From: a virus
Lineage: Duplodnaviria; Caudoviricetes
Direction: 5' to 3' (one strand)
IMG/VR virus record: IMGVR_UViG_3300047457_000862
Coordinates: 1 to 59,311 of that record
Length of the DNA: 59,311 bases
Part shown: positions 4,997 through 58,163 of the stretch, one piece after another
How positions within the stretch are numbered: position 1 is the stretch's first letter
Layout of the letters: the number at the start of each line of letters is the position of its first letter
The notes under the pieces: generated by a model
Databases searched by the model: none
Seen by the model: only the letters and a program-made list of their open reading frames with translations
What the model was told of the DNA's origin: nothing
Position numbers and translations under genes: made by a program

Positions 4997-5639
4997 TGTT
5001 CTCCTTTTCTAGTTTCTCCTTCAGCTCCTCCTGGTACTGCATCTCCTGCTCGCCGAGGAGGTCGATGTCGTTCCCCAGTATCCGCTGGTGCATCATCAGA
5101 TACCACGAAATCTTCCCCATTGGCAGATTCCACACATACTCCTCGCTCCACCCGCTGAACGCGATCACGGAAGCAGCCTCCTCCAGCTCTTGAGGGGCTC
5201 GCTCCCTGCGCGCCCCGGTCGCCCCAGTCTTCGGGATGATTGAGTATTCCGGCTTCTGGATGTAATCCCCGCAGTATTCGTAGAACTGCTCCGCGACCTT
5301 CGCGAGAGCGCGCTGGTAAGGATTCAACCCCGCCTCATTCTTGGGGTTTTTCGACAGGAGGGCCACCGCGATAGCCTTGACCATGATTAACGCCGGGACG
5401 AGCCACGGGCGACGCACCTTGCTATGTCCGTATGCGAGCTGGCAGACACCAACCGCGGTTCGAAGATCGAAGAACGTGATATCCCCGCCGACGAGCAAGG
5501 GGTTGTCCAGCGTCCGAAGCAGAAGTCGGTGCCAGAGACAAAACCGCCGCAGCTTTTTCCCTAGAACCCGATGCGGAGAGAATTCCCCTCCGTCCGAGTT
5601 GTCGATGAAAGCTGCGGCGAATGTAGGATGAACGGGCAT
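4983..5639 (-). CDS. putative tail assembly chaperone
   Basis: Immediately upstream of TMP; GWSEEYVWNLP resembles the chaperone GWsxxeIxxL motif. Confidence 0.55.
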   Translation of the reverse strand: MPVHPTFAAAFIDNSDGGEFSPHRVLGKKLRRFCLWHRLLLRTLDNPLLVGGDITFFDLRTAVGVCQLAYGHSKVRRPWLVPALIMVKAIAVALLSKNPKNEAGLNPYQRALAKVAEQFYEYCGDYIQKPEYSIIPKTGATGARRERAPQELEEAASVIAFSGWSEEYVWNLPMGKISWYLMMHQRILGNDIDLLGEQEMQYQEELKEKLEKENNGTR

Positions 5640-13500: not shown

Positions 13501-13554
13501 GGCAGCTTTGGCAATACGACGCTCAGGACGCTCTTCATTATTTCCAGTTTGCAT
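10525..13554 (-). CDS. large modular basic protein (Gly-zipper segments, DUF2786-like helix, HEXXH metallopeptidase-like module); putative virion cargo polyprotein
   Basis: IAHEAGH; four [M/W][S/G]ARE(S/E)L..I.F[A/G] linkers; located between portal and protease. Confidence 0.6.
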   Translation of the reverse strand: MQTGNNEERPERRIAKAAALGGVAGALLRAETLKKSAIGGLAGAAIAGGAQAVAERSASRSGDDAAGRINAATARAVPIGAATLAAIGAITKTPLWRRAGVKMPRVGGGITDGMMGLKSPAIIRSSGIGTAITPLTGAGKSIVVSGVGNAAKSGREIAVYAAPGATNTARRANTVSPGEVVSGAVANSSIGRLTGAASSLLASKDTGAIGQLARDAQNRAALGATGRRDYINKVRARHAEQARRVREESASAMSPHAPEWGSLEHIPSPARERLLHKLRHIQKLRIDSSSAGERKAAEEAMARVKKTYGLSTINTQPRQILEGIIELSFLNRIKEKADELAPVIQKKIGKFNAIQERVMTGKSAFPRVSKARAKEMYREVAGGKLPDNFDITAVKGGSHFNPGTSAGGSAMRSSPTAEIIAHEAGHARQARIAKVLAYRAAKKAGVPAHEAIAIAKNAPAAVFAGTNYAKQIPTKTKAGAVIASLPNLAIEADASRRAVKHLGKDAIPALARAWSTYAAGAASKIRKAGRVEMSAREELISIIEFGWRDKAAKAIPGPVRRFFTGEGATMPPAVEEAIRKTAAHPAAKMAGIDGEAIIEQGRKIAREKTGEINRKIVAWSVIPPAIQYGISKRDSNNSEKKIMKAIKERPVAMSARESLNAICFADPRPRNPLGMFTGADGSGIDPEAIGTVYKQGAQVAQQEESALAGIARKLKGKKIRMSARESLDEIRFARGERAIRQIWPVTEHEKMAMFNKVPVFAKSRKMLADRLRAELPELRKAMAYQKDELRATGYTGKFHWGARESLDSIINFAKGDFLMRTMKKVGVSTPRAELDAIEAAGRGVQGAFNQAATGAGRADLAGADTIGKVRSHLAGQLNEARKATRNAPFKKPVAERPIAPNSGTAPDPRLKTAASYGNTPVGQTGSSVQPVNPAPYQQPVAKQPVAQEAVAQQAAQKQAEEMAGGAVKQPTAMSGPNLKYRLRGWRGASLAGAAGLGAGYALGGGSSNV

Positions 13555-14281
13555 ATTTGTTGTAAATATCGGTTGCGCCACTTCCGACCTGACCAGAGAT
13601 ACCTCCGGGAATAATCCCGGCGTATGCCCCCGCGCCAGCGCCTATGGCGGCGATATTACGAACATCCCTCCAGCCTCCAATCCTCATTCTGGAACCAGCT
13701 CGAAGCATCCCCGCGATCGCCCCGCGCACCCCACCCTTCTTGGGCGATGCAATGCGGTGCGCCAGCTTGGTCATTGCGCGACCCGTAGCACCCGGCCGCT
13801 TCAGGCCAGCTAATGCGGCACCCCCGGCAAGCGCAGCGCCAATACCAGCGCCCCCTCCCACGTATTTGAGCGTTTGAACAAGAGCATGTTTAGATGCTTC
13901 ATTCTGTGCCTGAGCACGGAGTTCCGGTTTGGCTACGTTTGCTACTGCTGTTGGGTTTCCGGACTGCAATCGCGCCCAGTAGTCGGTCCTTCGTTGTTCT
14001 ATGCGGTTCAGTTTGTCTTCAAACGAGATAATTGATGTGTTCATAATTGATTGGAATGATTGGTTTCTGGAGCGGTTTGCTTTCTTGGATGTCACGCGGA
14101 GGTTGCTCGGTGCGTTGTTTGACGGATTGCGATCCTTGTGGTCAACGTCTTTGCCGTCGCCCTTCTTCACCCTGCCCTCTTTAACGAGTAAACGGCGTGC
14201 AGCATTTCGCTTTGCACGCCGTTTGACTTGTGAAGGTTTGGAGTGGTAGTCGCGGTACTCTTTGGCGTAGTCGCGAGCCAT
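13538..14281 (-). CDS. HNH endonuclease fused to Gly-zipper module
   Basis: MARDYAKEY...DVDHKD..NN..NLRV...NR; linker MNTSIISFE; Gly/Ala-rich hydrophobic tail. Confidence 0.7.
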   Translation of the reverse strand: MARDYAKEYRDYHSKPSQVKRRAKRNAARRLLVKEGRVKKGDGKDVDHKDRNPSNNAPSNLRVTSKKANRSRNQSFQSIMNTSIISFEDKLNRIEQRRTDYWARLQSGNPTAVANVAKPELRAQAQNEASKHALVQTLKYVGGGAGIGAALAGGAALAGLKRPGATGRAMTKLAHRIASPKKGGVRGAIAGMLRAGSRMRIGGWRDVRNIAAIGAGAGAYAGIIPGGISGQVGSGATDIYNKYANWK

Positions 14282-40071: not shown

Positions 40072-40377
40072 CTACGGAGCACTCACATTGAACTCAGACG
40101 CCACCGCAAGCAACCCCAATCTTCTCGCATCAGCCCCGTTGTCTCCGATCCAGTTGTGGCACGGTCGGCAGATCGCAAGGAAGAACCTCGCGTCACACAG
40201 AAGCCGACCAACCCTGCCGCGCTTGTGATGAATCTCCGTGGCTTTCCCGGAGCACACACCATTCACGCACGCCATGCACTTCGGATTCTCCTTCAGGAAC
40301 ACATCGCGGACCTTGTTATACTCCTGGTTCTGCCTCTGTCGCTTCTTCGAAACAGACTTCAATCGCGTGCGTTTCAC
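40072..40377 (-). CDS. HNH endonuclease (NinG-like)
   Basis: CMAC...EIHHKRGR...ICRPCH; GTG start overlaps upstream stop. Confidence 0.8.
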   Translation of the reverse strand: MKRTRLKSVSKKRQRQNQEYNKVRDVFLKENPKCMACVNGVCSGKATEIHHKRGRVGRLLCDARFFLAICRPCHNWIGDNGADARRLGLLAVASEFNVSAP

Positions 40378-40922
40378 AGCATCATACCCCTCTCCTGCGA
40401 TATTCCGTAGTCGAGGATCAAGAGCGCGTCGCACGTCTTGAGCGTCACGTTGCACATCGGGAACCGACGCTCCGCCTCGCCCTTCAACTTCGACTTCCAC
40501 TGGCGCTTCAGCAGCGCGTTGTGAGACTTGATGCCCTTGCGCTCATCGGGGGTCATCTCCGGAGTCGCCCGCAGAAGCCCCTTGCCGCCCAGGGACAGTG
40601 ACTTCTGCCACACTTGAGGAGTTACCTCTATGATGCGAATCCCAAGAGCCTCAACGATGCACCCGACGCGCTCCACAGAGCGCCCGAATTCAAACATCTG
40701 CGAAGCCCCTCCGTCCGGGATGAATCCCGTGATTTTCTCGATGTACGCCACGGGGGCACCGTCACTGCCTCCCGTGGCGTTTTCTTCGAGTATAAGTTTC
40801 ACCGCGTCGATCACCCCGCGCCGCGTGTCCGGCATCGGAATCACCTGAACCCCGATTCGGTTCGACCATGCGAACCCTCCGGAAGCACCGGGGTCGATGC
40901 CGATGATAGTGCGCGAGGTCAT
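40374..40922 (-). CDS. RuvC-like Holliday junction resolvase
   Basis: IIGIDPG, AYIEK, TPQVWQK, DALLI. Confidence 0.8.
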   Translation of the reverse strand: MTSRTIIGIDPGASGGFAWSNRIGVQVIPMPDTRRGVIDAVKLILEENATGGSDGAPVAYIEKITGFIPDGGASQMFEFGRSVERVGCIVEALGIRIIEVTPQVWQKSLSLGGKGLLRATPEMTPDERKGIKSHNALLKRQWKSKLKGEAERRFPMCNVTLKTCDALLILDYGISQERGMML

Positions 40923-45228: not shown

Positions 45229-45542
45229 AGCGTTGCCTCCCCGAAAAGAAACACCATCCTATCCTCGTGAACATCTGCATTCCTCTCGATGCGGGTGGCC
45301 GGAAAGACCACGAACCCCGCCTCCTTCATGCGCTCATGCGCCCGGGCTATCAGTGCCGTGACACGCTCGGTCGAGTCGATTTGTATTTCGTAGCTCTCGC
45401 AAAAGTTCACAAAGTCGCAAGCATGTTCAGCGCGGGTGAAAAACGGGAAGGGAGACATGCAGTATTTATCCATTATCCCAATTATTTCCTCAGTGGTCAG
45501 CGGACACACCGAGCTATTCAAGATTTCAGTTTTCATAAGCAA
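45225..45542 (-). CDS. hypothetical protein
   Basis: First gene of the replication operon. Confidence 0.5.
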   Translation of the reverse strand: MLMKTEILNSSVCPLTTEEIIGIMDKYCMSPFPFFTRAEHACDFVNFCESYEIQIDSTERVTALIARAHERMKEAGFVVFPATRIERNADVHEDRMVFLFGEATL

Positions 45543-45828
45543 TAAAACGGCCCATCAAGGAAATCGGTCGGAGAGAGAATTTCACAGGCGGCGTGTCTCC
45601 ACGCTCTTTGGGTTCTCCGCCCGACTTCCTAGATGGGCCAAAATGTTACTCGAATTGATGTTATCCCGTGCGGTTTCTCAGGCCGATCGATTGCTCGATG
45701 GGCGATGAATTGCAGAACAAAACTTTCACGTCAACGATTATTTTCGTTGCACTTCTTTCCGATAAATGATGAAAACAGCTCGCTCGACGACAAGTTCGCG
45801 AGCAGCTTACACTGACAAAAACAAAACA

Positions 45829-46548
45829 ATGACACTGATCAAAACATCCACCCCCGACAGCCAGATAACGCTGTCTGAATCAGCCGCGGAAGCGAAGAAA
45901 ACGCTCACCATGGCTTCGTCTGAAATCACCGAGGTAAAATCCCCGGAAGAGTCCACCGCGGCGAAAGCCGTGATCGCGAGAATCGACACCCACATGAAGG
46001 ACTTCGAGAAAGCGCGGGTCGCTGCAAAAGCGCCGTTCCTCGAAATCTGCCAGAAGCTCGACGCACTCAGCAGGGAGCATGTGGCATCGCTGGACTCGGA
46101 ACGGAAGCGGCTCAGCCGAATCGCAGCAGGGTTCGACGCCGAACAACTTCGAAAAGCGCAGGAGGAGGCGGCAGCGGCGCAGCGAAAGGCCGAGGAAGAA
46201 GAGCGCGAGCGGCGGAAGGCAATCGCTGAAGCTGAGAAAAAGCAGCGTGAGGCCGAGCAGTCCGGAGACGAGGCGGCAAAGCTGGAGGCGGAGATCCTCG
46301 CGGAAACCGCCAATGAGGCACCAGCGAAAGCCGTGGTCGTCGCCCCGATTCCAGAACATCTGGAGGGCATCCGGATGAAGACGGAGATCACCGTCACGGA
46401 CATCAAGGCGCTCTACGCTGCGCATCCGATGTTCGTGCGGCTTGAACCTGATCTGCGGATGATCCGCGCTGCGATCGACTCCGGGCAAACACTACCTGGG
46501 GTCAAGGTTGAGAGAGTTCCCGATGTCGCGAAGAGGAGGGGCGTATGA
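45829..46548 (+). CDS. coiled-coil recombination-associated protein (Gam/Gp157-like)
   Basis: Long helix, C-terminal LPGVKV; upstream of SSB and recombinase. Confidence 0.6.
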   Translation: MTLIKTSTPDSQITLSESAAEAKKTLTMASSEITEVKSPEESTAAKAVIARIDTHMKDFEKARVAAKAPFLEICQKLDALSREHVASLDSERKRLSRIAAGFDAEQLRKAQEEAAAAQRKAEEEERERRKAIAEAEKKQREAEQSGDEAAKLEAEILAETANEAPAKAVVVAPIPEHLEGIRMKTEITVTDIKALYAAHPMFVRLEPDLRMIRAAIDSGQTLPGVKVERVPDVAKRRGV

Positions 46549-46859
46549 GCGAAAAACGAGACAACAGCGGATCGTCGTTCCCGAACGACAGACGCCGCGA
46601 AGGGAAGAACGACCCGAACATCACAGGTTCCGTCATGATCGACGGGGAAGAATACTGGATGGACACGTGGGTCAAGAACCACCCCAAGCAGCCCAACCAC
46701 GACCCTTCGAAGAAGACCTGGTATTCGCACAGCTTCCGAAAGAAAGACTCACAGCGACAAGCTCGCCAACCACAACAACGCCGACAATCGGCACCACCTC
46801 CACCACCACCATCCGATAACGATGGAGGACTCCACCCGGACGAACAAACCTGGCAATAA
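46545..46859 (+). CDS. putative ssDNA-binding protein
   Basis: PNITGSVMIDGEEYW..W; Pro/acidic tail. Confidence 0.65.
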   Translation: MSEKRDNSGSSFPNDRRREGKNDPNITGSVMIDGEEYWMDTWVKNHPKQPNHDPSKKTWYSHSFRKKDSQRQARQPQQRRQSAPPPPPPSDNDGGLHPDEQTWQ

Positions 46860-46865
46860 CACACC

Positions 46866-47930
46866 ATGAACGAACAATACACACTCGAAACAATCGCAAC
46901 CATCAGCGAGAAACTTGCCCGAAGCGGCTTGATGGGAGGAAAAACGTCACCGGACGCGGTCTTTGGACTGATGCTCCTGTGCCAGAGCGAAGGCATGACG
47001 CCGATCTCTGCCATGAAGCGATACCACGTCATCGAGGGCAAGCCCTCTATGCGCGCAGACGCCATGCTTGCGGAGTTCCTCAACGACGGCGGCCGCGTCA
47101 TCTTTCACATCCGCGATGATGACATGGTGGGCGCTACGTTTATCTCGAAGACAGTGACGGTAGGGCAGGAGCACATCGACCGCGCCAACCAGCGGTTCCT
47201 TGCGGTGTGGAAGCTATGCTCAGCCCCGGCAGGGGAGCGCACGGGCCTCTACACGACCATTGCCAAGCTGTCGCACCCGGGCGAGGAAACCATCATCCGC
47301 ACATTCGCTGACTGCGACGCCAAGGGGCTTACGACGGGCAGCGACGGAAACCTGAAGAAGAACTGGGCGCAGTCACCGCGACAGATGCTCACCGCCCGCG
47401 TGATCACCGAGGGAATCCGACTGGTGGCACCACAGCTCGTCACCGGGGTCTATACGCCGGAGGAAATCAGCGATGAATCACCGCTTTCAGGGCTGGTGAA
47501 GAAGCAGACTGCCGAAGAGTTGCGGAAGGCCGCGCTCGACGAGACAGACCCCGAGAAGCGTCGTGAGCTGCTGGGTGCCGCTTCAGATATCGCGCACTCG
47601 GAGACGAAAGAGGCAGTGCTTGTGTTGGAGCAGGACGATATCCCGATGGGAGACGCGAAGCCCGCGAAGGCCAAGCAGATCAAACAGCAGGAAACCGAAC
47701 CCGCTCCGGACGTCGAGCCGCCGCTCCAGATCGGAGTTCCGTGGCAGGACTACGTGATCACCGAACTGAAGAACAAGCAGATGAACGGGCGAAAGCTCGG
47801 GACTCTGTCGAAGGCTGAGCTCGCAATGCTTCACCGCACGCGCTGCATGCCGTTCCTCAAGTCCGACAACGACAGGCTGCGCCTTGAGGCCGAGAAGATC
47901 CTTGAAGCATGTGAATCCTTCGCGCAATGA
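46866..47930 (+). CDS. RecT-like ssDNA annealing recombinase
   Basis: HVIEGKPSMRADAM, NWAQSPRQMLTAR, GVYTPEE. Confidence 0.75.
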   Translation: MNEQYTLETIATISEKLARSGLMGGKTSPDAVFGLMLLCQSEGMTPISAMKRYHVIEGKPSMRADAMLAEFLNDGGRVIFHIRDDDMVGATFISKTVTVGQEHIDRANQRFLAVWKLCSAPAGERTGLYTTIAKLSHPGEETIIRTFADCDAKGLTTGSDGNLKKNWAQSPRQMLTARVITEGIRLVAPQLVTGVYTPEEISDESPLSGLVKKQTAEELRKAALDETDPEKRRELLGAASDIAHSETKEAVLVLEQDDIPMGDAKPAKAKQIKQQETEPAPDVEPPLQIGVPWQDYVITELKNKQMNGRKLGTLSKAELAMLHRTRCMPFLKSDNDRLRLEAEKILEACESFAQ

Positions 47931-48208
47931 ACAACGACGCAAACACTCCGGCAGTAAGGATCACCGCATCCGCAATCGAGGCGACCATTCTCATGTTTCT
48001 GTTCACGTGGGTCCTTGGGAAATACGGAGTCCACGCGCCGAAGATTCCGATGTGGATGTCCGTATTCATTGCGTCCTTGTTCGAGGCATGGGCGAGTAGA
48101 TGGGGATACCACCCAACGAAATTGTCAAACATGGTCCGACGCTCATTCCAGGGCTCTGTAATCATTGCGATCCTCGCGCTGATCGCAAAATGGGTCGGGA
48201 TGCTATGA
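47927..48208 (+). CDS. small membrane protein
   Basis: Three hydrophobic segments. Confidence 0.55.
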   Translation: MNNDANTPAVRITASAIEATILMFLFTWVLGKYGVHAPKIPMWMSVFIASLFEAWASRWGYHPTKLSNMVRRSFQGSVIIAILALIAKWVGML

Positions 48209-48576
48209 CAACCAAGAAGAAGCTGAGTGCAATCCGCGCGAAGTGCGTTGAGCTTTTGGCGATTGCTGAGAAGCGGACGCAAGGCCAATGGAAACGGCAG
48301 TCAATATATGGGACGGCTATTTTATGCGAGAATAGCAAGAATAACGGGAATATGGTTTGCGATTTGCCAGATTCAAGCCCTGAGTGCGATCAATTTTCAC
48401 CTAATGCAGATTTTATTGCCTCATGCGCCGGACCCGCAGAGGCAGGATGGAAAGCTACGATTGCGGCGATTGATTCACTCGAAACAGTTGCGGAATGGCA
48501 TCCAAGTGGTGCCGCTAAAAACGAAGAAGCCGCAGCGATTGACGCAATCATCGCCGCATGGGAGGGCCTGGCATGA
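48205..48576 (+). CDS. Ead/Ea22-like protein
   Basis: KRTQGQW...NADFIASC. Confidence 0.55.
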   Translation: MTTKKKLSAIRAKCVELLAIAEKRTQGQWKRQSIYGTAILCENSKNNGNMVCDLPDSSPECDQFSPNADFIASCAGPAEAGWKATIAAIDSLETVAEWHPSGAAKNEEAAAIDAIIAAWEGLA

Positions 48577-48820
48577 CCAAGCTGCTTCCCGGAGATCGCG
48601 TTTCGTTCATCCAGAACGGACGCAGACTGCGCGGCGTGATCGCCGATGCTTTGCAGATAAAAGTGCGCGGCGAGGAGCTGGAGCTACCCGTGGTTCGGCC
48701 ATCGCGAAGATCTGCTTCTCGCCCGCTCATGGAGCAGCAAAGGCCGCCGAAGCTGCGCTGGATCAAGCGGTCCCTGCTCAGGAAATTGCCAGTCAAGAAG
48801 GAGGGCGGAAAGGAGCAACA

Positions 48821-49144
48821 ATGACAGAGAAAACTGCAACGCCCGACGAATTGGGAGCAGCGCCTTTTTCGCCAGTTTCGTGTCCGCTCTGCGACGGAGG
48901 CGGGCAAATCACAAATCCCGAGCATCCCGACCACCCAAAGAACACACACGACGGCCACGACGAAACGTGGTGCCTCGGCTGCGATGGCAGCGGTCTGCTT
49001 GAAGTAAAGCGAGGCGTAGTCATGCAGGGCAGATACGAGGGCGAAAGGCTCTCGCGGCTGAAAAGGTGGCGCGCGCAGGATGGTCCGCCGAACGACAAAC
49101 ACAGCGAACCCGCCGAGGGAACGCGCAACCAACACGAAAAATGA
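48821..49144 (+). CDS. DnaJ-type Zn-finger cassette protein
   Basis: CPLCDGGG...CLGCDGSG. Confidence 0.6.
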   Translation: MTEKTATPDELGAAPFSPVSCPLCDGGGQITNPEHPDHPKNTHDGHDETWCLGCDGSGLLEVKRGVVMQGRYEGERLSRLKRWRAQDGPPNDKHSEPAEGTRNQHEK

Positions 49145-49208
49145 CTGATACTAACCAACCCCAAAAGAAACCAGAAACGGCGGGTTCGCCTGCTGTGATG
49201 GGTTCTGA
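49087..49208 (-). repeat. attC site
   Basis: On +: GCCGAAC...CACAGCGAACCCGCCG / CGGCGGGTTCGCcTGcTG...GTTCTGA. Confidence 0.75.
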
Positions 49209-49611
49209 TTCCCTAGCCGAAAAGCTCTTTGCTGCCGACGGACTGGATATGGAGCTATTCGACACGGTAAACATGATACTTGGGTGCGACACGGGAAAAT
49301 GCACTGACACAGGATTTTTGTGGGGTGCGACCGATACAACTTGGGATCATTACGACTGCTCGGTTGAAATCATTCGTCCTATTCACAGCGAATGGATGTC
49401 GCGCGAGCAGGCAGATCAAATCCTTGCGTTAGGCTTCGCTCAGATATTTGAAACTGTTGGCGATAAAGCGCGGCAAATCACAAGGAAAGGAATAGGCACC
49501 TGTTCGCCGCGTGAGGCAGGGGAGGTCAGAAGGCTCAAGGCGGAAATAAACGCACTCAGGAATCAGAACGCAGAAGTCAGCGACCCGACGGAGGAGGGTT
49601 CGCTGCACTGA
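49141..49611 (+). CDS. cassette ORF, hypothetical
   Basis: Starts inside one attC loop and ends inside the next attC. Confidence 0.65.
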   Translation: MTDTNQPQKKPETAGSPAVMGSDSLAEKLFAADGLDMELFDTVNMILGCDTGKCTDTGFLWGATDTTWDHYDCSVEIIRPIHSEWMSREQADQILALGFAQIFETVGDKARQITRKGIGTCSPREAGEVRRLKAEINALRNQNAEVSDPTEEGSLH

Positions 49612-49621
49612 CTGGTTCGGC
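49563..49621 (-). repeat. attC site (59 bp)
   Basis: Minus strand: GCCGAAC-CAGTC-AGTGCAGC-GAACCC..GGGTC-GCTGACT-TCTGC-GTTCTGA. Confidence 0.9.
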
Positions 49622-49631
49622 ACATTCACCG

Positions 49632-49979
49632 ATGAAAACGAAAGACCAACTCAAACCAAACTTCGGGCCAGCCTACGCCGCCGCTATGTATCCCGGCCTC
49701 GCGGCAATTTTCCACTGCCACGGCTACGCGCTCGCGTGCCACGGAAGCCTCGCCCGCGACTTCGACCTGATAGCTGTGCCGTGGGCTGAAACTGTGTCAG
49801 ACCATGCGACGGTGCTGAAAGACGTGACGACGGAATACGCGCTGCGACTCACGGACGATGGCGAAATGAAAAACCACGGGCGAAAAGCCTACACGCTCTC
49901 ATGCGGATTTGGTGAGTGCGCGATAGACCTGAGCTTTGTGTCGAACGACCCAAGCTCAGCGACGCGGGAGACAATATGA
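49632..49979 (+). CDS. cassette ORF, nucleotidyltransferase-like
   Basis: GYALACHGSLARDFDLIAVPW (GS..D.D motif). Confidence 0.7.
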   Translation: MKTKDQLKPNFGPAYAAAMYPGLAAIFHCHGYALACHGSLARDFDLIAVPWAETVSDHATVLKDVTTEYALRLTDDGEMKNHGRKAYTLSCGFGECAIDLSFVSNDPSSATRETI

Positions 49980-50165
49980 CGAACGAACGGAAACCAAAGC
50001 AGCCTGCGGTCCTTGGCGGGCCGTGTGAATGCGGCGATGGATATGCCGCGTGCAATATGGTGCTCGCCTACGAATGCACCCAGTGCGGTAGGCGGGAGGC
50101 TGCGGATGAATCGGCTAAAGCGCCGGACGAACAGGAGGCGCGTTCGCTGCAGCGCGTGGTTAGTC
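49940..50165 (-). repeat. attC site with long loop (226 bp)
   Basis: GTCGAAC..GCTCAGCGACGCG / CGCGtTCGCTGcAGC..GTTAGTC. Confidence 0.75.
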
Positions 50166-50464
50166 GCCTTGAGTGGACTTTCGAAGCAGAGTCGCGGCGG
50201 TGGCTGGGGCGGCTTCGTGGACATCCCGACCGCACGCTGTTCATCCTCAATCTCGTGGAGGGCCGCGACGACCGCTGCCACCTTCTTGGCGGGGTGATGT
50301 CCGACAGCGAGGATAGGCAACACACCCGCGCACTCGTGACTTGGGCGAAAATGGCGGCGGAGTGGTATCTCGACGACTTCGAAGCACTGCTGAAGGCGAC
50401 TAACAATCAAGCTCACCTACCCGCTCCGGCGGAGACGGTGGAGCGCAAGAAAGACAATCTATGA
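49976..50464 (+). CDS. cassette ORF, hypothetical
   Basis: Starts inside an attC loop. Confidence 0.6.
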   Translation: MTNERKPKQPAVLGGPCECGDGYAACNMVLAYECTQCGRREAADESAKAPDEQEARSLQRVVSRLEWTFEAESRRWLGRLRGHPDRTLFILNLVEGRDDRCHLLGGVMSDSEDRQHTRALVTWAKMAAEWYLDDFEALLKATNNQAHLPAPAETVERKKDNL

Positions 50465-50523
50465 ACACAGACACATCGAACGCAGAACAGCAGGAGCGGG
50501 TTAGGTGCAGCGCATGGTTAGAT
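50398..50523 (-). repeat. attC site
   Basis: GACTAAC..GCTCACCTACCCGCTCC / GGAGCGGGtTAGGTGcAGC..GTTAGAT. Confidence 0.88.
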
Positions 50524-50706
50524 GCCTGTAAGCGGCGCTACGAAGCAGCAATCAAAGCGCACTCGAAAGCACAAACAGCGGACGAGGAAAATAGACTGTT
50601 TGACGAAGTGGTGGCTGCAACCGACGAATACAGAACCGCGTCGGCATCTAACGCTGAACGCAGCGGCGTAACGTCCGCTGCCGTGACTGGTTCGCCACCT
50701 TTATGA
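50461..50706 (+). CDS. cassette ORF, hypothetical
   Basis: 81 aa; both termini are encoded by attC DNA. Confidence 0.55.
   Translation: MNTDTSNAEQQERVRCSAWLDACKRRYEAAIKAHSKAQTADEENRLFDEVVAATDEYRTASASNAERSGVTSAAVTGSPPL
50646..50696 (-). repeat. attC site (51 bp)
   Basis: ATCTAAC..CGCAGCGGCG / CGtCCGCTGcCG..GTTCGCC. Confidence 0.8.
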
Positions 50707-51065
50707 ACTCACTCGAAGTAATCAATGCCGAGAAACGCGCCTACGAGAAAGCGTGGAGATTGAAGAACATCGAAAGGTGTCGGCAATACTCGCGTGACAA
50801 TTACGCGAAGAATAAGGAACGCCGCCGCGAATATCGGTCCAAGTGGAGCAAAGCCAATCGCGCAAAGAAGAACGCCATAAACAAGCGGTGGCGCGAACGG
50901 CACCCGGATGTCGTGAAGGAATGCAATCGCCGCGAAATCGAGAACCTATCGGCAGCGTATGTAGCCAAGAAGATGCGCCTGCGTGTTAGCGAGTGCCCGC
51001 CCGAACTCATTCAACTGAAACGAACCCATATCCAACTGCAAAGAGAATTACGAAAAACCAAATGA
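50703..51065 (+). CDS. basic helical protein (cassette)
   Basis: R/K/Y/W repeats; PPELIQLKR. Confidence 0.65.
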   Translation: MNSLEVINAEKRAYEKAWRLKNIERCRQYSRDNYAKNKERRREYRSKWSKANRAKKNAINKRWRERHPDVVKECNRREIENLSAAYVAKKMRLRVSECPPELIQLKRTHIQLQRELRKTK

Positions 51066-51268
51066 CCACACCAACGAACATGCAAGAACTCCGCGCCGTG
51101 CTCTGCGAAACCATCGCCGCCGTTCGCGCAAAAGAAATCACACCCGACGCGGCGGAGGCCGTGAGTAATGCGAGCGGCAAAATAGTCGCGAGTTTCCGTG
51201 TGGAACTCGAATACCGCAGGATGCGAGGCGAAGTGCCTACACTCGGCTTCATGGAGGGCGGGAAATGA
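51062..51268 (+). CDS. small hypothetical protein (cassette)
   Basis: AEAVSNASGKIV; coupled to previous ORF. Confidence 0.6.
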   Translation: MTTPTNMQELRAVLCETIAAVRAKEITPDAAEAVSNASGKIVASFRVELEYRRMRGEVPTLGFMEGGK

Positions 51269-51672
51269 ACTGCGACGACGACCACCACGCGGCTATGGGT
51301 TCCATCGCGGAATCCAGCGCCGCGCAGGAGCAGGCTGTTAAACTCGCAAACCAAATCGACAAAGCACTCGCGCTAGTGAACGAAGAATGCCCAGCAATGG
51401 ATCATTTCACAAACATCGTTCCAACCGTAGAATGGCTGATTCAGAAATGGCGCGAATGTCGGAGGCTTTGGTCTAAATCATGCCAATACCGGGACAAATT
51501 ACGCGAGGAAAATCAACGTCTCCGCGACCACTTTTCTGGCCTGATTTACAGCGCAGAACGCGCAGCCGATTTGATTATTTCCGTGAGCGACCGATACGAC
51601 ATTGATGTTGCGATAGAGTCGGCAAAGGCGGTGCTGGCGAACGATGAGATCAGCCGGGAGGCGGGAGAATAA
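51265..51672 (+). CDS. hypothetical protein (cassette)
   Basis: Ends within an attC arm. Confidence 0.55.
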   Translation: MNCDDDHHAAMGSIAESSAAQEQAVKLANQIDKALALVNEECPAMDHFTNIVPTVEWLIQKWRECRRLWSKSCQYRDKLREENQRLRDHFSGLIYSAERAADLIISVSDRYDIDVAIESAKAVLANDEISREAGE

Positions 51673-51731
51673 TTTATGAAAAACACACAAGGCTCGCAGC
51701 CCGCCTCATCGGCTGCATCGACGGGTTCGGC
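51636..51731 (-). repeat. attC site
   Basis: GGCGAAC..GATCAGCCGGGAGGCGGG / CCCGCCTCATCGGCTGcATC..GTTCGGC. Confidence 0.85.
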
Positions 51732-52110
51732 ACTTACATTCGATGCGTTTCGTGCAGCGAACGTAGCACGCTGCCTCAAATGGCATCCCAAAGGAATCGA
51801 ATCGTGGTCGTCGTCAGACTGGCTCACCGCCGTCGCTGGCGAACTCGGAGAACTGGCATCACTGCTGAAAATGCGCAACCGAGAACGCGACGGGCTGCCC
51901 GGAAATAAGTTCAGCCCGACAGACAAACAAATCGCCGATGAAGTAGCCGACGTAGCGACCTACCTCGACCTGCTGGCATACGTGCTCGGCGTGGACATGG
52001 GCCGCGCGGTTGCGGAGAAATTCAATGCTGTCAGCGAGCGCGTGGGATTCCCCGACCGCCTCGAGGTGCCGAACGCAGAATCCACCGACGCGAAGCGTTC
52101 GGTGCGATGA
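51676..52110 (+). CDS. MazG-like nucleotide pyrophosphohydrolase (cassette)
   Basis: GELGEL...DEVADV..YL...KFN. Confidence 0.85.
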   Translation: MKNTQGSQPASSAASTGSALTFDAFRAANVARCLKWHPKGIESWSSSDWLTAVAGELGELASLLKMRNRERDGLPGNKFSPTDKQIADEVADVATYLDLLAYVLGVDMGRAVAEKFNAVSERVGFPDRLEVPNAESTDAKRSVR

Positions 52111-52120
52111 TTTGTTCGAC
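52068..52120 (-). repeat. attC site (53 bp)
   Basis: GCCGAAC..ATCCACCGACGC / GCGtTCGGTGcGAT..GTTCGAC. Confidence 0.88.
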
Positions 52121-52130
52121 ATTTACGACT

Positions 52131-52757
52131 ATGCAAACACAAGAAGCACTCGAAACACTTGACGCCATGCAGCGTCAAGTCATTCACGGCTCGACAGTCT
52201 TCAGGGACATCGGCGACGTGATACGGAATCTCACGCTTTCATGGACCGAAAAACCGCCAGACCAAGAGGGATGGTATTGGATTCGTTTCGCTGGGGTAGA
52301 AGCGCGACTGGTCAGTGTGGCTCATAATGGGACCACTTTGGAATACTACATATCAGGAATGGGTAAATTTAACCTATTCTACCCGCCCTCGCATTTCGTT
52401 GAGTTCGCCGGACCTGTGCGCGAACCGTCGAACAATAAAATGAACGAACCAGAACCAACTCCACCAACAGACAGCGGGCGCTTGCCTGACGCTACTTGTT
52501 CGCCTGCGGACGTTTTGCGGATACGCTGCATTCACCACATTAACGTGCCGCAACAAAACACGGCAGAGCACACTGGCGCGGAATGTGGTGGATGTATTGC
52601 CGCCGAACGGGACGCACTCAGATCCAAACTGGAGCAAGTGAGGAGACTGGCTGAGCATCTTGGATTCTGCCAACAGGTCTCCCAGAGGGAGATTGCCGAT
52701 GCGCTGACAAGCATACTGAATCAGGCGAACAAGGATTCTGCAACCGATTCACTCTAA
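52131..52757 (+). CDS. hypothetical protein, fusion of two cassette ORFs
   Basis: WTEKPPDQEGWYW module plus CIHH/ECGGC module joined across a decayed attC; second in-frame ATG at 52440. Confidence 0.55.
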   Translation: MQTQEALETLDAMQRQVIHGSTVFRDIGDVIRNLTLSWTEKPPDQEGWYWIRFAGVEARLVSVAHNGTTLEYYISGMGKFNLFYPPSHFVEFAGPVREPSNNKMNEPEPTPPTDSGRLPDATCSPADVLRIRCIHHINVPQQNTAEHTGAECGGCIAAERDALRSKLEQVRRLAEHLGFCQQVSQREIADALTSILNQANKDSATDSL

Positions 52758-52780
52758 CCGTTCGTCTAATCAAAATCCGA
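52724..52780 (-). other. attI-like recombination site candidate
   Basis: G|TTCGCC core without attC hairpin; two further GTT cores at 14-bp spacing. Confidence 0.5.
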
Positions 52781-52781
52781 C

Positions 52782-54632
52782 CTACCCCTGCACGTTCGCC
52801 GCGCTGGTCTCCCCGGGCATCGAAAGCAACCCGAGCTGGAGCGCCCTGATCGCAACGTGGCTCTCGCAGTCCGAGAGATGGTTCTCCTGATGAAGCTCAA
52901 CCCATGTCCACTCTACCTTGCCAGTGCGCTTATTCTTCTGCTGGCGCTTCACGCGTGAGTTCAAGTGGCGCTGGTAGCGGTCGCTCACGTTGATTGAAGC
53001 GTGCCAGATAACGGGGTCCGCGTAGCGCAGGCTCGACACGAGATCGAGGGCTCCGTTCTTCGAGAACTTCACGAATCGCACGCGCTGGACAGTGCGGTTC
53101 TCCCATGCGGTTCCGAGGAGCGGATCGCGGAACTGGACCTGTGAGTAAATCCTGGTGGTTCTCGTTCCATTCGGCCCTGGGTGGTAGAACTCCTTCGTGT
53201 TTGATCCCCAGATGCCGCGCCATCCGTAGCTGAGTATGATTCGGCCGACAGCGTTCGGTCGGTTCGCCATATCCACGGTGACGTTCTCGTCCGCAACTCC
53301 GTATTCGATCTGGACCTTCTTGATGTCGTCCTCGGTGTCCACGCGCTCCGCAAACACCAGCCAGCTCTCGCCGTGCGGCTTCTGTGGCGTCGGGCGGGCG
53401 AACTTCCGCACCAGCACCCAGTAGTGCCCCTCCTGCGCGTCCACGGCCATAAGCGGGACGGAGTCCTCCGGGGTCGATGTAATCTCCTCCAGCGGGATTT
53501 CCTTGTGATCGTAGCCGCGTGACTCGTCCCACGGTTCCGCAAGCCACGAGTTGATGAAGTTCTGCATGTCGCGCAGCAGCCCCTTGGATGTGAGATACTG
53601 AACTGCCACGGCCGACAGCGACGTCTGCTGCGACAGGATCGAGTATAGCGAGCTGAGTTGATACCCGAACCAGCCCGGGGCGCACTGCGAGTTTGTCGGG
53701 GTCCATATCCCCTCGCTGAGCATTGCCTGCCTCTCGATGTCCTGAATCTCTCCTCCGCACTCCTGACAGCGATAGAAGGCGTTCCTCGCCACTTTCTCCA
53801 TGTCCCACGCCCCATCGGTCTTCGATTCCTCCTCAGACTCTCTCCACCACCGCACCCCGCAATCGCCGTGCTCCTCCGACTTCGTTGTGAACATCAACCG
53901 GATGCGCCGTTCGCACCGCGGGCATGGGAGCATGTAGTATCGCTGGTCTGTCTTCAGGAACTCGGTCCAGATCATCCGGTTCGCCAGCGTCGGCGTGGAC
54001 GATTTCACCACCAGCGGGAACGGGTAGGTCTTCGTGCGCTCCTCCGCCAGTTTGATCGCCGCTGCCTCGAACTTCGACTCGTCGCCATACTTGTCCGTCT
54101 CGTCCATCCACAGCAGCCCTACGGGTCGGCTGGAAAGGTTCGCCGGAGAGTTGGAGCCTACAAAGTTGAGCACCATCGACGAGAAGTGCTGCTCCATGAA
54201 TCCGAAGAGATGCTTGTCGAACTCGCCGGATGCCGATCGAGGGACCATCGCCGCTGCCTGGGCGCACGCCCTGACGAACTTCTGCCACCGCGACTTCGAG
54301 AATGACTTCGCGAGCTCGCCATTCGGAAGCACCCACATGGCGTCCTGCGGATCCCGGGCCAGCCGATAGAGCATCCCGAGCTGCATGACCGAGGTTTTCC
54401 CGCTCTGCGTTCCGAACACCAGGACGAGGTGCTTTGAGTCCTTCTGCCCGATCCGCTCCAGCGGCTCCCTCAGATACGGAGTGAGCGTCATCGATGCCCG
54501 CCCCTGCACGGCACCAGTAGGGATGTCGCAGTTCGCCTCCACCCAGCTCACCACACTCTCGGTGGTCGGAGGCCTCAGTGCGTCCCTGAACCGCTGTTGC
54601 AGCTCCCTCAGTGCTTCAAGTCGATTACTCAT
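52782..54632 (-). CDS. terminase large subunit, GpA family
   Basis: TPYLREP, GTQSGKT, WMDETD, SSTPT, CPRC/CQEC, ENHLSDC. Confidence 0.92.
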   Translation of the reverse strand: MSNRLEALRELQQRFRDALRPPTTESVVSWVEANCDIPTGAVQGRASMTLTPYLREPLERIGQKDSKHLVLVFGTQSGKTSVMQLGMLYRLARDPQDAMWVLPNGELAKSFSKSRWQKFVRACAQAAAMVPRSASGEFDKHLFGFMEQHFSSMVLNFVGSNSPANLSSRPVGLLWMDETDKYGDESKFEAAAIKLAEERTKTYPFPLVVKSSTPTLANRMIWTEFLKTDQRYYMLPCPRCERRIRLMFTTKSEEHGDCGVRWWRESEEESKTDGAWDMEKVARNAFYRCQECGGEIQDIERQAMLSEGIWTPTNSQCAPGWFGYQLSSLYSILSQQTSLSAVAVQYLTSKGLLRDMQNFINSWLAEPWDESRGYDHKEIPLEEITSTPEDSVPLMAVDAQEGHYWVLVRKFARPTPQKPHGESWLVFAERVDTEDDIKKVQIEYGVADENVTVDMANRPNAVGRIILSYGWRGIWGSNTKEFYHPGPNGTRTTRIYSQVQFRDPLLGTAWENRTVQRVRFVKFSKNGALDLVSSLRYADPVIWHASINVSDRYQRHLNSRVKRQQKNKRTGKVEWTWVELHQENHLSDCESHVAIRALQLGLLSMPGETSAANVQG

Positions 54633-55248
54633 ACATTTTCTGCGCCTCCGTGATAATTTCCGTCGCTGCCGCCTCAAGCACATCGAACGCCCTGCGCGGG
54701 TCGGCTGGGTTACAGAGCGTGCATTTCGCCTGCGGGAGACGCTTCAGCCTGCCAATCATCAGATCCCACCCCTTCCTGAACATCTCCGTTGCTTCAGCCA
54801 GCGGGACAAGCACCCTGCGCTGCGCCTGCTCCTCGCGGTACGCCTTTTCCGCCGCGAACCGGGCCTCGATAGCCTTCGTGTGGATCGAGAGCGCTGGCGC
54901 GACCGCAGCGGGCTTTCCGGACGCCATGGCATCATCGAGCATCTTTTTCGCCTGAATCTGTGCCATGATCGCCGACTTCAGTGCCCCCTCCAGCGACATA
55001 TCCGCCGCGCTCGACGCATCCTTCCTCGGTCTGCCCCTTTTCCTCTTGGGTGGCTCGATCGACGCCACAACCTCCTCCATTTGCTCTGCCGCCCGCTTCC
55101 CTCCGGCCGACTTTCTCGACCTGGCATTCGCCTCCCGCCACTCCGTAGCGGCTTCTTCTGAGTCCAACGGCATCCCCTTCGTCGTGAGCTTCCTCACATA
55201 CTCCCGGGAGACGCCCCATCTGCGGGCAAGTTCAGCTTGGCGTATCAT
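54625..55248 (-). CDS. terminase small subunit (Nu1-like)
   Basis: N-terminal wHTH QAELARRWGVSREYV..GMP; LVP motif; overlaps terL. Confidence 0.8.
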   Translation of the reverse strand: MIRQAELARRWGVSREYVRKLTTKGMPLDSEEAATEWREANARSRKSAGGKRAAEQMEEVVASIEPPKRKRGRPRKDASSAADMSLEGALKSAIMAQIQAKKMLDDAMASGKPAAVAPALSIHTKAIEARFAAEKAYREEQAQRRVLVPLAEATEMFRKGWDLMIGRLKRLPQAKCTLCNPADPRRAFDVLEAAATEIITEAQKMYE

Positions 55249-55891
55249 CTTCAGTAGTCAGTTCTACCCAGAGCCGCTCACGTCAACCTTAATTCCGTGA
55301 AATACCAAATAAAAACTCGAAACGCTGGTTCCCAGGACACCTCAAGCCCTCTGAGGGAAGAGATTCCTTGACCACCACCGCAACAATTTCACGCAATAAT
55401 GCCAGTTGACGAGGTCCGCGCCGGTGGATATGGCAGCAACACCTTCCTTGACTGCGCTACGGCTCCGGGGCTGCGGCGTGTGAGACATGCGGGATCGCAA
55501 TACCGCAGGAGGCCGAGTGGTGGCAGTAGTAGCGTATGACGATGCGTGAGGCTGCCGCTGCTCGACAGGCGAATCAGAATACACTTACACTTCGACTATG
55601 CGCTTCCTGTCTTACAATCTCGTCTCCCTCACCTGCCTCATCATTGCTGGCTCGCTCATCTGGGGCGGACAAAGACCATTGGGGATGGTTCCTGGTCATC
55701 GGTGCGTTAACGGCCGTTGTTCCGGACGGCAAATCGAAAGATTGACACGGCGATTTCTGCGCCCTAGCACGGCGACGTGACGCTCGGCGTTGTGTTGCCT
55801 CGGGAGATCCGGGGCTAGGTTAAATCGCTGGCTCGACGGCTGGTTTGGATCTTCCTCATGAATCAGAGCTGGGTGTCACAACAAATAATTT

Positions 55892-56177: not shown

Positions 56178-56789
56178 ATGAATAACGAACTCGAATTCAC
56201 TGAATTCCCAAAGATAGCGCGACTCTCTCGCGACTGCATCATTACTGAGAAGCTGGATGGCACAAATGCCCAGATCTGCATCACCGAGGACGGCGTAATG
56301 TACGTCGGATCTCGCTCCAGATGGATCACCCCGGAAGATGACAATTACGGATTTGCAAGCTGGGCTCGCGACAACAAGGAAGAGTTATTGAAGCTCGGGC
56401 CAGGCCGCCACTTCGGCGAGTGGTGGGGGCAGGGCATCCAGCGCAAATATGGGATGACAGAAAAGCGCTGGAGCCTATTCAACGTCGCTCGCTGGTGCCT
56501 TCACGGTACCGAGCCGCAGCGCATCATCACAGAAGACCCACGTATTGAGAAATACCAAGAAGTGCTTCCTTCCTGCTGTCATCTCGTTCCGTTGATGTAT
56601 CGAGGCCCATTTGTCACATCGACTATCGAATGGCATCTCGACCTTTTGCGCAAGAATGGAAGCCTTGCATCACCTGGCTTCATGCGGCCAGAGGGCATCG
56701 TGTGCTACCACATCGCTGCTGGGGTTGCGTTCAAGAAAACGGTCGAGAATGACGCGTCCAGGAAAGGTTTTTCGAAAACGATCATCTAA
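56178..56789 (+). CDS. RNA ligase (Rnl2-like adenylation domain)
   Basis: FPKI, TEKLDGTN, GSR, FGEW, EGIV, FK. Confidence 0.85.
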   Translation: MNNELEFTEFPKIARLSRDCIITEKLDGTNAQICITEDGVMYVGSRSRWITPEDDNYGFASWARDNKEELLKLGPGRHFGEWWGQGIQRKYGMTEKRWSLFNVARWCLHGTEPQRIITEDPRIEKYQEVLPSCCHLVPLMYRGPFVTSTIEWHLDLLRKNGSLASPGFMRPEGIVCYHIAAGVAFKKTVENDASRKGFSKTII

Positions 56790-57036
56790 TCACTCGCAAT
56801 GAAAAACATAGAATCAATCCGGCATCTCAAGAATGCCGCGCAAACACTCAGAACGCTCCGCCCGAATTTCCTCAAGGAGATCGCGGAGCCTCGGTGCGAC
56901 AAGCCCGCAACGCCATCGACGCAGCCATGAAAGGAGCCGAATGAGCGACGATCAAATAGAATTCATCGGGCAAGTCGCGATCCTCATCGTGGCAATAATT
57001 TGCATCACGGCACTCATCATCAAATTCGGTTAATTT

Positions 57037-57960
57037 ATGGGAAAAGACTCAGCAATCAGCTGGACGCACCACACGTTTAATACGTGGTGGGGATGCGAGA
57101 AAGTATCACCGGCCTGCGCTCACTGCTACGCCGAAACGTGGTCGAAGCGCACGGGGCTTGATTCGCTATGGAAGGGTGAGCGTCGATTCTTCAGCGACAA
57201 GCATTGGAACGACCCGATTCGCTGGAACAAGGCGGCGGAACTGGCGGGGGAGCGTCGGCGGGTGTTTTGCGCGAGCATGGCGGATGTGTTTGAGGACAGG
57301 GAGGAGTTGATTCCGCATCGGGCGCGGTTATTCGACCTCATCCGCCGCACTCCAAACCTCGACTGGCTGCTGCTCACGAAAAGGCCGGAGAACATCGGCA
57401 TTCACATGAAACAAGTCTGGCATCAAGCGGATGATACAGGAATGTCGGAATTGAGGACGTTCGTGAAGGAATGGCTGCAAGGCACCGCGCCCGCAAACGT
57501 GTGGATTGGGACTACGGTGGAAAATCAGGAAATGGCGGAGAAGCGGATTCCTTCGCTACTCAAAGTTCCGGCTGCTGTGCATTTCCTAAGCTGCGAGCCG
57601 TTGCTTGGGCCGGTTGATATTTCTTTGTTTTTGGATGACTGCAACGGAATCCCTCGCACGCCTTGGGTGATTTGCGGCGGGGAATCCGGCGCACACGCAC
57701 GCCCAATGAACCCCGATTGGGCGCGAACACTCCGGGACCAATGCGCCGCCGCTGGCGTGCCGTTTCATTTCAAGCAGCATGGGGAATGGTGCCCCGGTGC
57801 ATTCGGGACAAACATTCCCGATTGTTTAACGCCGGAACAGCGCGCCGATAAACGGTTTTACCATTACTTTGATCCACCCGGAGGTAAAACTTGGCGCGTC
57901 GGCACCAAGCGCGCCGGACGGCTGCTCGATGGTGTGCTCCATGATGAATTCCCTCGATAG
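57037..57960 (+). CDS. phage Gp37/Gp68 (DUF5131) radical-SAM-like protein
   Basis: ISWTHHTFN.W.GC.KVSPACAHCYA, LLTKRP, SCEPLL, GGESG, FHFKQ. Confidence 0.92.
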   Translation: MGKDSAISWTHHTFNTWWGCEKVSPACAHCYAETWSKRTGLDSLWKGERRFFSDKHWNDPIRWNKAAELAGERRRVFCASMADVFEDREELIPHRARLFDLIRRTPNLDWLLLTKRPENIGIHMKQVWHQADDTGMSELRTFVKEWLQGTAPANVWIGTTVENQEMAEKRIPSLLKVPAAVHFLSCEPLLGPVDISLFLDDCNGIPRTPWVICGGESGAHARPMNPDWARTLRDQCAAAGVPFHFKQHGEWCPGAFGTNIPDCLTPEQRADKRFYHYFDPPGGKTWRVGTKRAGRLLDGVLHDEFPR

Positions 57961-57962
57961 CC

Positions 57963-58163
57963 ATGGGCAGGAAGCCAGACGCGCGAATAGACCTCGGGCT
58001 TGCCATCCTGTCCACCCGCCCGCGCAAGCCGCGCACGCTGGAGGAGATTGCCGCCTTCTGTGGCTGCCACAACACCGCGATCAGCCGGATAGAGCGGTCG
58101 GCCCTGAAAAAGCTCAAGGCGAGGCTCCTGGAGCGCCAGGCGACCCATTCCGCAATGCGATGA
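57963..58163 (+). CDS. stand-alone sigma70 region-4-like HTH protein
   Basis: RTLEEIA...ISRIERSALKKLK. Confidence 0.75.
   Translation: MGRKPDARIDLGLAILSTRPRKPRTLEEIAAFCGCHNTAISRIERSALKKLKARLLERQATHSAMR

Follow-up and report, generated by a model that had tools for sequence, protein, structure and literature searches.

A hairpin-less element most likely marks a fixed recombination junction at the end of an integron-like cassette array beside the terminase gene of a freshwater phage

The point at which a row of small gene cassettes meets the terminase gene terL in a phage genome is most likely a real, fixed recombination junction, occupied by a hairpin-less element that ends the array. The genome is a linear IMG/VR virus record of 59,311 bases with a completeness estimate of 81%, and the window referred to throughout is this whole stretch of DNA. 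Positions 52731-52770 can be read as an attI equivalent, the place where an integrase-less, integron-like array occupying the tail of an early operon has its fixed end, a reading to which we give about even confidence.

The site lies between two convergent genes. On the minus strand, terL (52782..54683, stop codon at 52782-84) encodes a 633-aa terminase large subunit of the lambda GpA type (GpA_ATPase, E 6e-49; GpA_nuclease, E 2e-9), and a probable terminase small subunit is encoded on the same strand at 54625..55248 (phrog_57, E 1.3e-5). On the plus strand, the converging ORF 52107..52757 (216 aa, without Pfam or PHROG family) closes a tightly packed operon headed by a Red-like recombination module (45766..47930), which consists of exonuclease-like (45766..46548), SSB-like (46545..46859) and RecT (46866..47930) genes. 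The final 36 nt of this ORF, with the stop TAA at 52755-57, and the 24-nt gap between the two stop codons (52758..52781) make up the segment 52722-52781; its letters are exactly as given in the preliminary description of this DNA. The plus strand at 52722-30 is CAGGCGAAC, and the minus strand across the site reads GTTAGAG-TGAATCG-GTTGCAG-AATCCTT-GTTCGCC. The ORF has its last in-frame Asn codon at the junction triplet AAC (52728..52730), which reads GTT on the minus strand. The plus-strand element that follows (52731..52770), AAGGATT through GTTCGTCTAAT, gives in its first 27 nt the tail KDSATDSL and a TAA stop to any ORF joined there, and ends just 11 nt short of the terL stop. A bidirectional terminator in the 24-nt gap was considered and rejected, as folds and a terminator scan show no terminator-like hairpin there. 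Positions 49000-55300 had no blastn match in a phage isolate collection, and 48500-53000 had no Rfam family at E up to 1.

The comparative sequences are all metagenome assemblies, and the joints were read from contigs. An 8.9-kb IMG/VR contig (L002, also designated L012) encodes a TerL identical to that of the window and matches 55341-52726 at 100%, then 49946-49561 at 99.7%, then 49206-44258 at 99.1%. It is without 49947-52725; the joint lies within a common CGAAC and fuses ORF 49632 in frame to the KDSATDSL tail. Further left, 49207-49560 has been exchanged for 988 other bases with further hairpins, and the arms of hairpin E0 are kept around a different loop. A 2.7-kb metagenome contig (L007), again with an identical TerL, agrees letter for letter with both the window and L002 between the AAC at 52728 and position 52800, where the alignment ends; its left flank is a third, unrelated sequence ending in CTAAC. 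The preliminary description had predicted conservation to the right of this point and variation to the left, and the alignment bears it out: L002 and L007 are 100% identical right of the AAC at 52728-30 and unrelated left of it, and metagenome contigs break at the same place. Because the relatives diverge exactly there, the terminal junction is far beyond chance.

The terL half was found near-identically in 20 sequencing runs, which come from 15 studies that sampled fresh, river and estuary water. When Logan contigs of four runs (X1, X3, X9 and X13) were mapped on 45000-55400, runs X1 and X3 showed a joint from 49089 to 49566 with five letters in common, skipping the first cassette, and run X9 a joint from 49096 to 52726 with 507 foreign letters in between. 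A contig of run X13 begins at 52726 after 291 foreign letters, one of run X3 diverges before 52728, and a 379-nt contig of run X3 carries 52728-52770 with unlike DNA on both sides. One 251-nt contig of run X1 corresponds exactly to 50402-50652, at a depth of 53 versus about 8-11 for its neighbours. Loose contig ends fall at 49940-46, 50402, 50652, 51643 and 52728. Break points away from an AAC occur at 49633, 50163, 50521 and 52770; 50163 and 50521 are the 3' feet of hairpins E2 and E3, and come from short contigs that match arms alone.

Nine junctions had been predicted before this mapping, and six were matched within 4 nt (49569, 49946, 50404, 50652, 51642 and 52730); two were unmatched (50483 and 52074), and 49109 was superseded by 49093. 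With the whole triplet as the limit of resolution, crossovers map to a common AAC at 49093, 49569, 49946, 50404, 50652, 51642 and 52730. Junction partners and relatives have no more than 3-5 nt in common at the joints, a microhomology too short for the junctions to have come from homologous recombination or assembly chimeras. An element of the window's type has been seen with at least six different left neighbours (cassettes C7 and C2, the L007 flank, and contigs of X9, X13 and X3), and the L016-type element, the version of a more distant relative, with three. The preliminary description also proposed that new cassettes are added at this terminal site; the arrays of relatives differ at both ends, and preferential entry here is unsupported.

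The protein of cassette C2 allows a further view of its junction residue, 105. It has 503 homologues at E up to 1e-5, and among the best 120 of these, 75 alignments omit residue 105 (stopping at 102-104, or in a few cases continuing beyond 105 across a gap). The other 45 reach it, with Asn in 27 and distinct tails in 44, and the family's natural C-terminal variation blurs the test. One of the tails is KD, as an L016-type element would give.

Seven plus-strand cassettes span 49094-52730, each opening with one imperfect hairpin on the coding strand. C1 (49094..49569), the unit skipped in X1 and X3 and replaced in L002, holds hairpin E0 (49087-49208) and ORF 49141..49611. C2 (49570..49946), which in L002 abuts the terminal element directly, has E1 (49563-49621) and ORF 49632..49979; C3 (49947..50404) has the long hairpin E2 (49940-50165) and ORF 49976..50464; and C4 (50405..50652) has E3 (50398-50523) and ORF 50461..50706. 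Three ORFs (starting at 50703, 51062 and 51265) follow E4 (50646-50696) in C5 (50653..51642). C6 (51643..52074), at whose start the loose contig end at 51643 lies, combines E5 (51636-51731) with a weakly MazG-like ORF (51676..52110), and C7 (52075..52730) combines E6 (52068-52120) with the terminal ORF 52107..52757. At every one of the eight junctions the AAC is read in frame, as an Asn codon of the upstream ORF, and each cassette ORF continues 8-19 codons into the next unit and takes its stop there. Successive ORFs overlap by ATGA at five of their seven transitions, and gene starts often lie inside a hairpin loop. Promoter-like sites (2 versus 1.7 expected) and terminator-like sites (8 versus 5.6 expected, none of them on the plus strand) are at chance level.

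Families of direct repeats of 27-38 nt recur over 49589-52125 in differing reading frames, and so are conserved as nucleic acid, not as protein. Parsed box by box by hand on computed folds, a hairpin opens with a heptamer whose last letters are AAC and a purine-rich spacer of 6 nt. Its inner stem, built around CAGCG-like and CGCTG-like pentamers, encloses a loop that ranges from 3 to about 170 nt; the 3' arm reads GT[T]CGCTG[C]A, two of its bases being extra, and a second spacer and a GTT close the element. The spacers after AAC (GCAGAA, GCTGAA, GATGAG, GACAAA and AATCAA), like those before the outer GTT, are partly paired in minimum-energy folds. The inner-stem pentamers co-vary (CAGCG/CGCTG, CACCG/CGGTG, CAGCC/GGCTG and CACCT/AGGTG, with CAGAG/CTCTG in L016). 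Unpaired T and C on the 3' arm are present in E1, E3, E4, E6, the L012 element and one L016 element; in E5 the unpaired C is clear, and a 2-versus-1-nt mismatch stands at the expected T position. The elements span 52, 54, 61, 94, 100, 124, 127 and 227 nt. The plus-strand hairpins are not consistently stabler than their complements. Lying on the sense strand, they are also present in the mRNA, where they enclose stop and start codons.

Arm-duplex energies average -19.3 kcal/mol for cognate pairs versus -12.3 for 56 non-cognate pairs, a difference matched by none of 20000 permutations, and the cognate arm ranks first for six of eight elements by row and for six of eight by column. These energies were used in place of a MAFFT and RNAalifold analysis of nine elements, in which the 5' arms of long-loop elements were misaligned and six pairs were recovered. 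Against dinucleotide or mononucleotide shuffles, the folds of E0, E1, E3, E4, E5 and E6 have z-scores of -2.2 to -3.5; that of E2 (227 nt) has z -1.1, with an ambiguous minimum-energy fold. Pairing of AAC with the outer GTT is seen in five of the folds (E0, E1, E3, E5 and E6), and for E4 in the arm-duplex analysis alone. Scanned automatically between 40000 and 53000, the plus strand had 17 hits at -15.5 or below, 12 of them in 49093-52114 and five in the preceding 9 kb; the scan placed E4 at 50659 rather than 50652 and found E2 in the minus-strand listing alone.

The terminal junction differs from the others in having no such partner. At 285 random AAC sites, the best GTT-anchored partner averages -10.2 kcal/mol (sd 3.0), with a 5th percentile of -15.4. 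All seven internal junctions lie beyond that, at -16.2 to -24.1 kcal/mol. For the 29-nt 5' arm of the terminal junction, the best partner within 370 nt reaches -9.7 kcal/mol, the level of the background, and is nothing more than a 7-bp GGCGAAC/GTTCGCC match at 52794, inside terL; folds of 52724-52766 and of 52724-52800 both have z +0.6. That no attC arm follows the last cassette end, as first described, is borne out by these values. The three GTT cores 14 bp apart that had been pointed out on the minus strand are present, and their significance is not upheld: the pattern GTT-N11-GTT-N11-GTT occurs once in the window versus 0.17 expected, at least once in 17 of 100 shuffles, and the spacing is absent from the element versions of L016, L017 and L018. 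The heptamer GTTCGCC itself is enriched in the window, with 25 copies versus 13.2 expected (25 was reached in none of 100 shuffles), and 14 of the 25 lie within 49184-54537.

Searching IMG/VR with a degenerate pattern of the terminal element gave six loci: the L002 contig, four informative loci (L016-L019), and L020, which has a GC content of 41% and no other similarity and was taken as a chance match. L016 is a 49-kb relative (terL 78%, recT 71% and cassette C5 91% identical), in which the element stands after a cassette ending in AAC and before a 200-aa plus-strand ORF that abuts a convergent terL. The order in L017 is a MazG-like, hairpin-bearing cassette with CAGAAC as its last letters, the element, and then the start codon ATG of a metallopeptidase-like gene. 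L018 and L019 are the same phage from two samples, with the array between terL and a portal gene on the same strand. Their TerL aligns with that of the window at 26% over 113 aa, and beyond C4 no DNA similarity was found; C4 itself is 100% identical over exactly 50402-50652, with another cassette upstream and the element and a 120-aa ORF downstream. Judged from sequence, recognisable versions of the element end cassette runs in at least four phage backgrounds, beside different fixed genes. Eight distant TerL relatives (L003-L006 and L008-L011, 27-45% identity) have the double-GTT motif in a comparable array in no case. A RecT bait recovered the L002 contig alone from IMG/VR, as did the hairpin pattern; among species genomes the hairpin pattern had one match, an Enterorhabdus MAG (L014), versus an estimated 0.5 or so expected by chance.

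These backgrounds bear on what the element is. The adjacency to terL, in the place where an integron would have intI, is real and incidental: in relatives the ATG of other genes comes right after the element. An ordinary hairpin-less leader, the 5' remnant of a lost last operon gene, would have such a start codon next to it, as found before the 200-aa ORF of L016, the metallopeptidase-like gene of L017 and the 120-aa ORF of L018/L019; the AAC would then be one more crossover, and the element would have no docking role. The 379-nt contig of run X3 fits this too, with the identical 43 nt followed by ATGGAACTG... rather than by terL, as do the 11 nt that the window keeps between element and terL stop and the chance level of the GTT periodicity; the window may simply have lost the gene after the element. 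Yet the element persists while the genes downstream of it differ among backgrounds, it is the sole junction partner without a hairpin, and it stands at the end where hairpin polarity predicts an attI. It also gives a stop two or eight codons past the junction, as the hairpin leaders do. We regard the leader explanation as unlikely on balance, and as one that deserves to be taken seriously. The initial designation of the site as an integrase-less attI keeps its basis in a window search that found no integrase, in the position and in the lack of a hairpin; with an ATG right behind it in relatives, the element could equally be a hairpin-less gene leader.

The search for a recombinase covered several levels. 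No Pfam integrase was found among the 76 ORFs scanned, and the six frames of the 59-kb window have no match to PF00589, PF01797 or PF00239 (tyrosine recombinase, Y1 transposase and serine recombinase) at E up to 1. PF00589 was found in none of five related records, fragments that are 11-67% complete against 81% for the window. PHROGs added only a Holliday-junction resolvase (40374..40922), an HNH endonuclease (13538..14281) and the Red-like module, and the genes beside the element in L016 and L018 belong to no recombinase family. The 200-aa ORF of L016 was considered as a candidate and rejected: it has no Pfam, PHROG or PDB sequence match, its Atlas model is poor (pTM 0.30), and the structural neighbours are below the bar.

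With no recombinase found in the window or in the five related records, the junctions might have formed without any site-specific enzyme, the hairpins being RNA or translational-coupling elements and the joints products of Red-type (exonuclease/RecT) or microhomology recombination followed by selection for reading frame. The operon is indeed headed by an exonuclease-SSB-RecT module, and sense-strand hairpins that enclose stop and start codons, together with the ATGA overlaps at five of seven gene transitions, would suit a role in coupling. The arms of different hairpin elements are moreover 65-80% alike, and short contigs match arms alone. Selection for frame alone would nevertheless allow joints anywhere in frame, whereas every mapped junction falls at the same hairpin-foot triplet, with 3-5 nt in common, far under what RecT-type annealing needs. 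Nor is a coupling role evident for the T and C bulges that are conserved on the arm facing the AAC, and an identical AAC-bounded cassette is found in an unrelated phage. We consider an enzyme-free origin improbable. It is very improbable that the site is a secondary, attG-like target at which an integron integrase once inserted at a chance GTT, the flank being conserved merely as phage backbone, since the element recurs at array ends with different backbones and neighbours, which is unexpected for a chance backbone site, even though integrases can insert cassettes outside att sites according to a preprint (bioRxiv 10.1101/2022.09.11.507474), a GTT alone would be needed and no cognate integrase lies nearby.

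The attI-equivalent reading of 52731-52770 is favoured by the position of the element relative to hairpin polarity, its lack of a hairpin, its varied left neighbours and its recurrence beside different fixed genes; against a docking role stand the search that found no enzyme, the differences of arrays at both ends and the gene start that follows in three backgrounds. Under this reading, and by analogy with attC x attC and attC x attI reactions, joining would be a site-specific, single-strand, hairpin-directed recombination within the AAC. The enzyme would act in trans, from the host or from a part of the phage outside the record, with the hairpin-less element as the attI-equivalent docking partner, and the fixed reading phase would preserve translational coupling for any arriving cassette.

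Sites of the attC type are about 57-141 bp long, with a variable terminal structure and an unpaired central spacer that separates the R and L boxes. An attI is a double-strand site without a hairpin, with integrase-binding boxes or direct repeats and a preferred insertion point, and a CALIN is a cluster of at least two attC sites that has no integron integrase near it. Against the attC length, one of the eight elements is too long and two are slightly short. The AAC and GTT triplets pair at the hairpin foot, as at the foot of an attC, and a GTT-anchored partner exists in seven of seven elements. The attC consensus is largely absent: RYYYAAC fits one of eight junction heptamers (ATCTAAC) and GTTRRRY one of seven outer heptamers (GTTAGAT). 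As described by Nivina et al. (2016, PMC5027507), the AAC triplet alone is conserved among all attC sites, and it is the arm facing the recombined triplet that carries the extrahelical bases. The extra bases of the array are likewise opposite the recombined 5' AAC. The plus strand is marked as bottom-like by two independent features, the location of the junctions (5' AAC) and that of the extra T and C (3' arm). The proposed polarity, with this site at the head of the array, accordingly stood: crossovers fall at the 5' AAC of plus-strand hairpins, the extra bases are on the opposite arm, and seven cassettes that each have a hairpin at the far end, with a hairpin-less partner at the head, place that partner in the attI position.

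The array resembles an integron or CALIN in that its small, promoterless cassettes stand in a row and have one imperfect hairpin each, with a variable loop and an AAC crossover. Its seven attC-like hairpins with no integrase found in the window recall a CALIN in particular, and the single hairpin-less site at the polarity-defined head, with cassettes abutting at G|TT, recalls an integron. In contrast to integrons, its junctions lie within coding sequence and are always in frame, starts are often within a hairpin loop, and the terminal site adjoins terL instead of the cognate intI of an attI. All ORFs are on the strand with the bottom-strand features, not on the top strand as for attC cassettes, and each hairpin moves together with the ORF that follows it. 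The array ORFs are inverted in comparison with the integrons described, in which inverted-orientation cassettes 'have never been observed' in the words of one account (PMC5027507).

CALINs with 2-4 predicted attC sites are known from 17 phages, and IntI1 recombined five of six tested phage attCs (Qi et al. 2023, PMC9892861). The window array has seven attC-like hairpins, and in the sections of that paper concerned with phage CALINs no population evidence of shuffling is presented. Two validated attC sites of phage TJE1 (table S3 of the same paper; in HQ225832), used here solely as a folding control, have a similar fold style at -17.5 and -12.5 kcal/mol. The attC bottom strand of TJE1 is antisense to the genes, whereas the bottom-like strand of the window array is the coding strand. 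E4 begins with the same 12 nt as the attC-aadA7 bottom strand in that table.

The nearest homology-based analogue, as titles and abstracts present it, is the PeSL cassette of T4-type phages, in which stem-loop elements flank small accessory genes in hyperplastic regions (Arbiol et al. 2010, PMC2839356; Comeau et al. 2014, PMC4122927). Repeated elements mark gene gain, loss and replacement among close phages in both systems. The same titles and abstracts set PeSLs apart as promoter-terminator motifs that act through homology between copies, unlike the array, with its chance level of promoter-like and terminator-like sites, its 3-5 nt in common and its fixed in-frame triplet junction. Among the papers found by full-text searches on attC or CALIN and phages, titles and the opening lines of abstracts describe no in-frame junctions, inverted cassettes or common hairpin-less end element, and the in-frame, inverted design with a common docking element appears to be new.

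A wider reading, which we offer tentatively and with clearly less than even confidence, is that unrelated freshwater phage lineages draw on a common cassette pool moved by a trans-acting, hairpin-reading recombinase. The in-frame Asn crossover, borrowed stops and starts in loops would then make up a plug-and-play coupled operon, and the AAGGATT-to-GTTCGT element would be a new kind of attI without an adjacent integrase. If true, this would explain how small accessory genes ('ORFan' regions) turn over so quickly in virulent-type phages and would extend integron-type cassette exchange to phage-to-phage traffic, with a design undescribed for integrons, inverted cassettes fused in frame via the crossover triplet. 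The hairpins and the 43-nt docking element would be defined short substrates for recombination assays and for an enzyme search, and the phage concerned is common in freshwater, as the near-identical copies in the 20 runs and 15 studies indicate. MazG-like genes recur as cassettes, which hints at host-manipulating cargo.

Four small genes separate RecT from the first hairpin junction of the cassette array (window 47927-49093), and all four are missing in L016, a 49-kb relative in which a single small ORF (1770-2016) connects RecT with a homologue of cassette C5. Because of this absence, the variable region may start immediately 3' of RecT. A hairpin scan returned a weak candidate near the beginning of the interval, at 47932-48079. 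The final ORF upstream of the array (48821-49144) has its in-frame end point at AAC 49093, the first array junction. This ORF, which had no family match, carries a CxxCxGxG motif twice, and the pair resembles the DnaJ-type zinc finger.

A second site of population variation was found upstream of the array, in a 123-aa ORF at 48205-48576. When metagenome contigs of sequencing run X13 were compared with the window, they contained three joints within this ORF (48262 to 48441, 48280 to 48414 and 48280 to 48418), accompanied by a 190-nt contig at about four times the depth of its neighbours.

Within the arrays, MazG-like (NTP pyrophosphatase-like) genes occur in four cases, as differing cassette alleles. 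The window copy (51676-52110) was recognized by a weak Pfam match (E 7e-4), and those in the near-identical contig L012 (5604-5987) and in two other phages, L017 (minus strand) and L018 (4218-4607), on the basis of similar sequence and of PHROGs without an assigned function.

The interior of the ORF at 52107..52757 (window 52400-52510) contains two CGAAC motifs at a distance of 16 nt (52429-52449). It also has an ATG in frame at 52441 and a copy of GTTCGCC at each of 52403 and 52498; this 216-aa ORF may be two cassettes fused. Extra AAC...GTT hairpin candidates were also found inside cassettes C5 (50898-51122, -18.1 kcal/mol) and C6 (51879-52009, -19.6 kcal/mol), in each case with the AAC off the mapped junctions.

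On the minus strand of L018, the terminal element, the hairpin-less end piece of the array, is followed by a 120-aa ORF (3638-4000) and then by a metallopeptidase-like gene (3409-3708). The first ten residues are common to the two, and the 120-aa ORF departs from the gene at a CGAAC; the arrangement looks like the insertion of a unit that duplicated the leader and N-terminus. In species genomes, one match to the hairpin pattern was seen, at 5001-5045 of an Enterorhabdus MAG contig (L014), and is probably due to chance.

The terS-terL pair (52782-55248) is about 31 kb away from the portal and head genes (19857-21638), and opposes the end of the early operon rather than heading the structural block. 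Beyond terS, the interval 56178-58163 encodes an RNA ligase (E 3e-14) and a DUF5131 protein (E 5e-83), along with a 66-aa protein that matches sigma-70 region 4.
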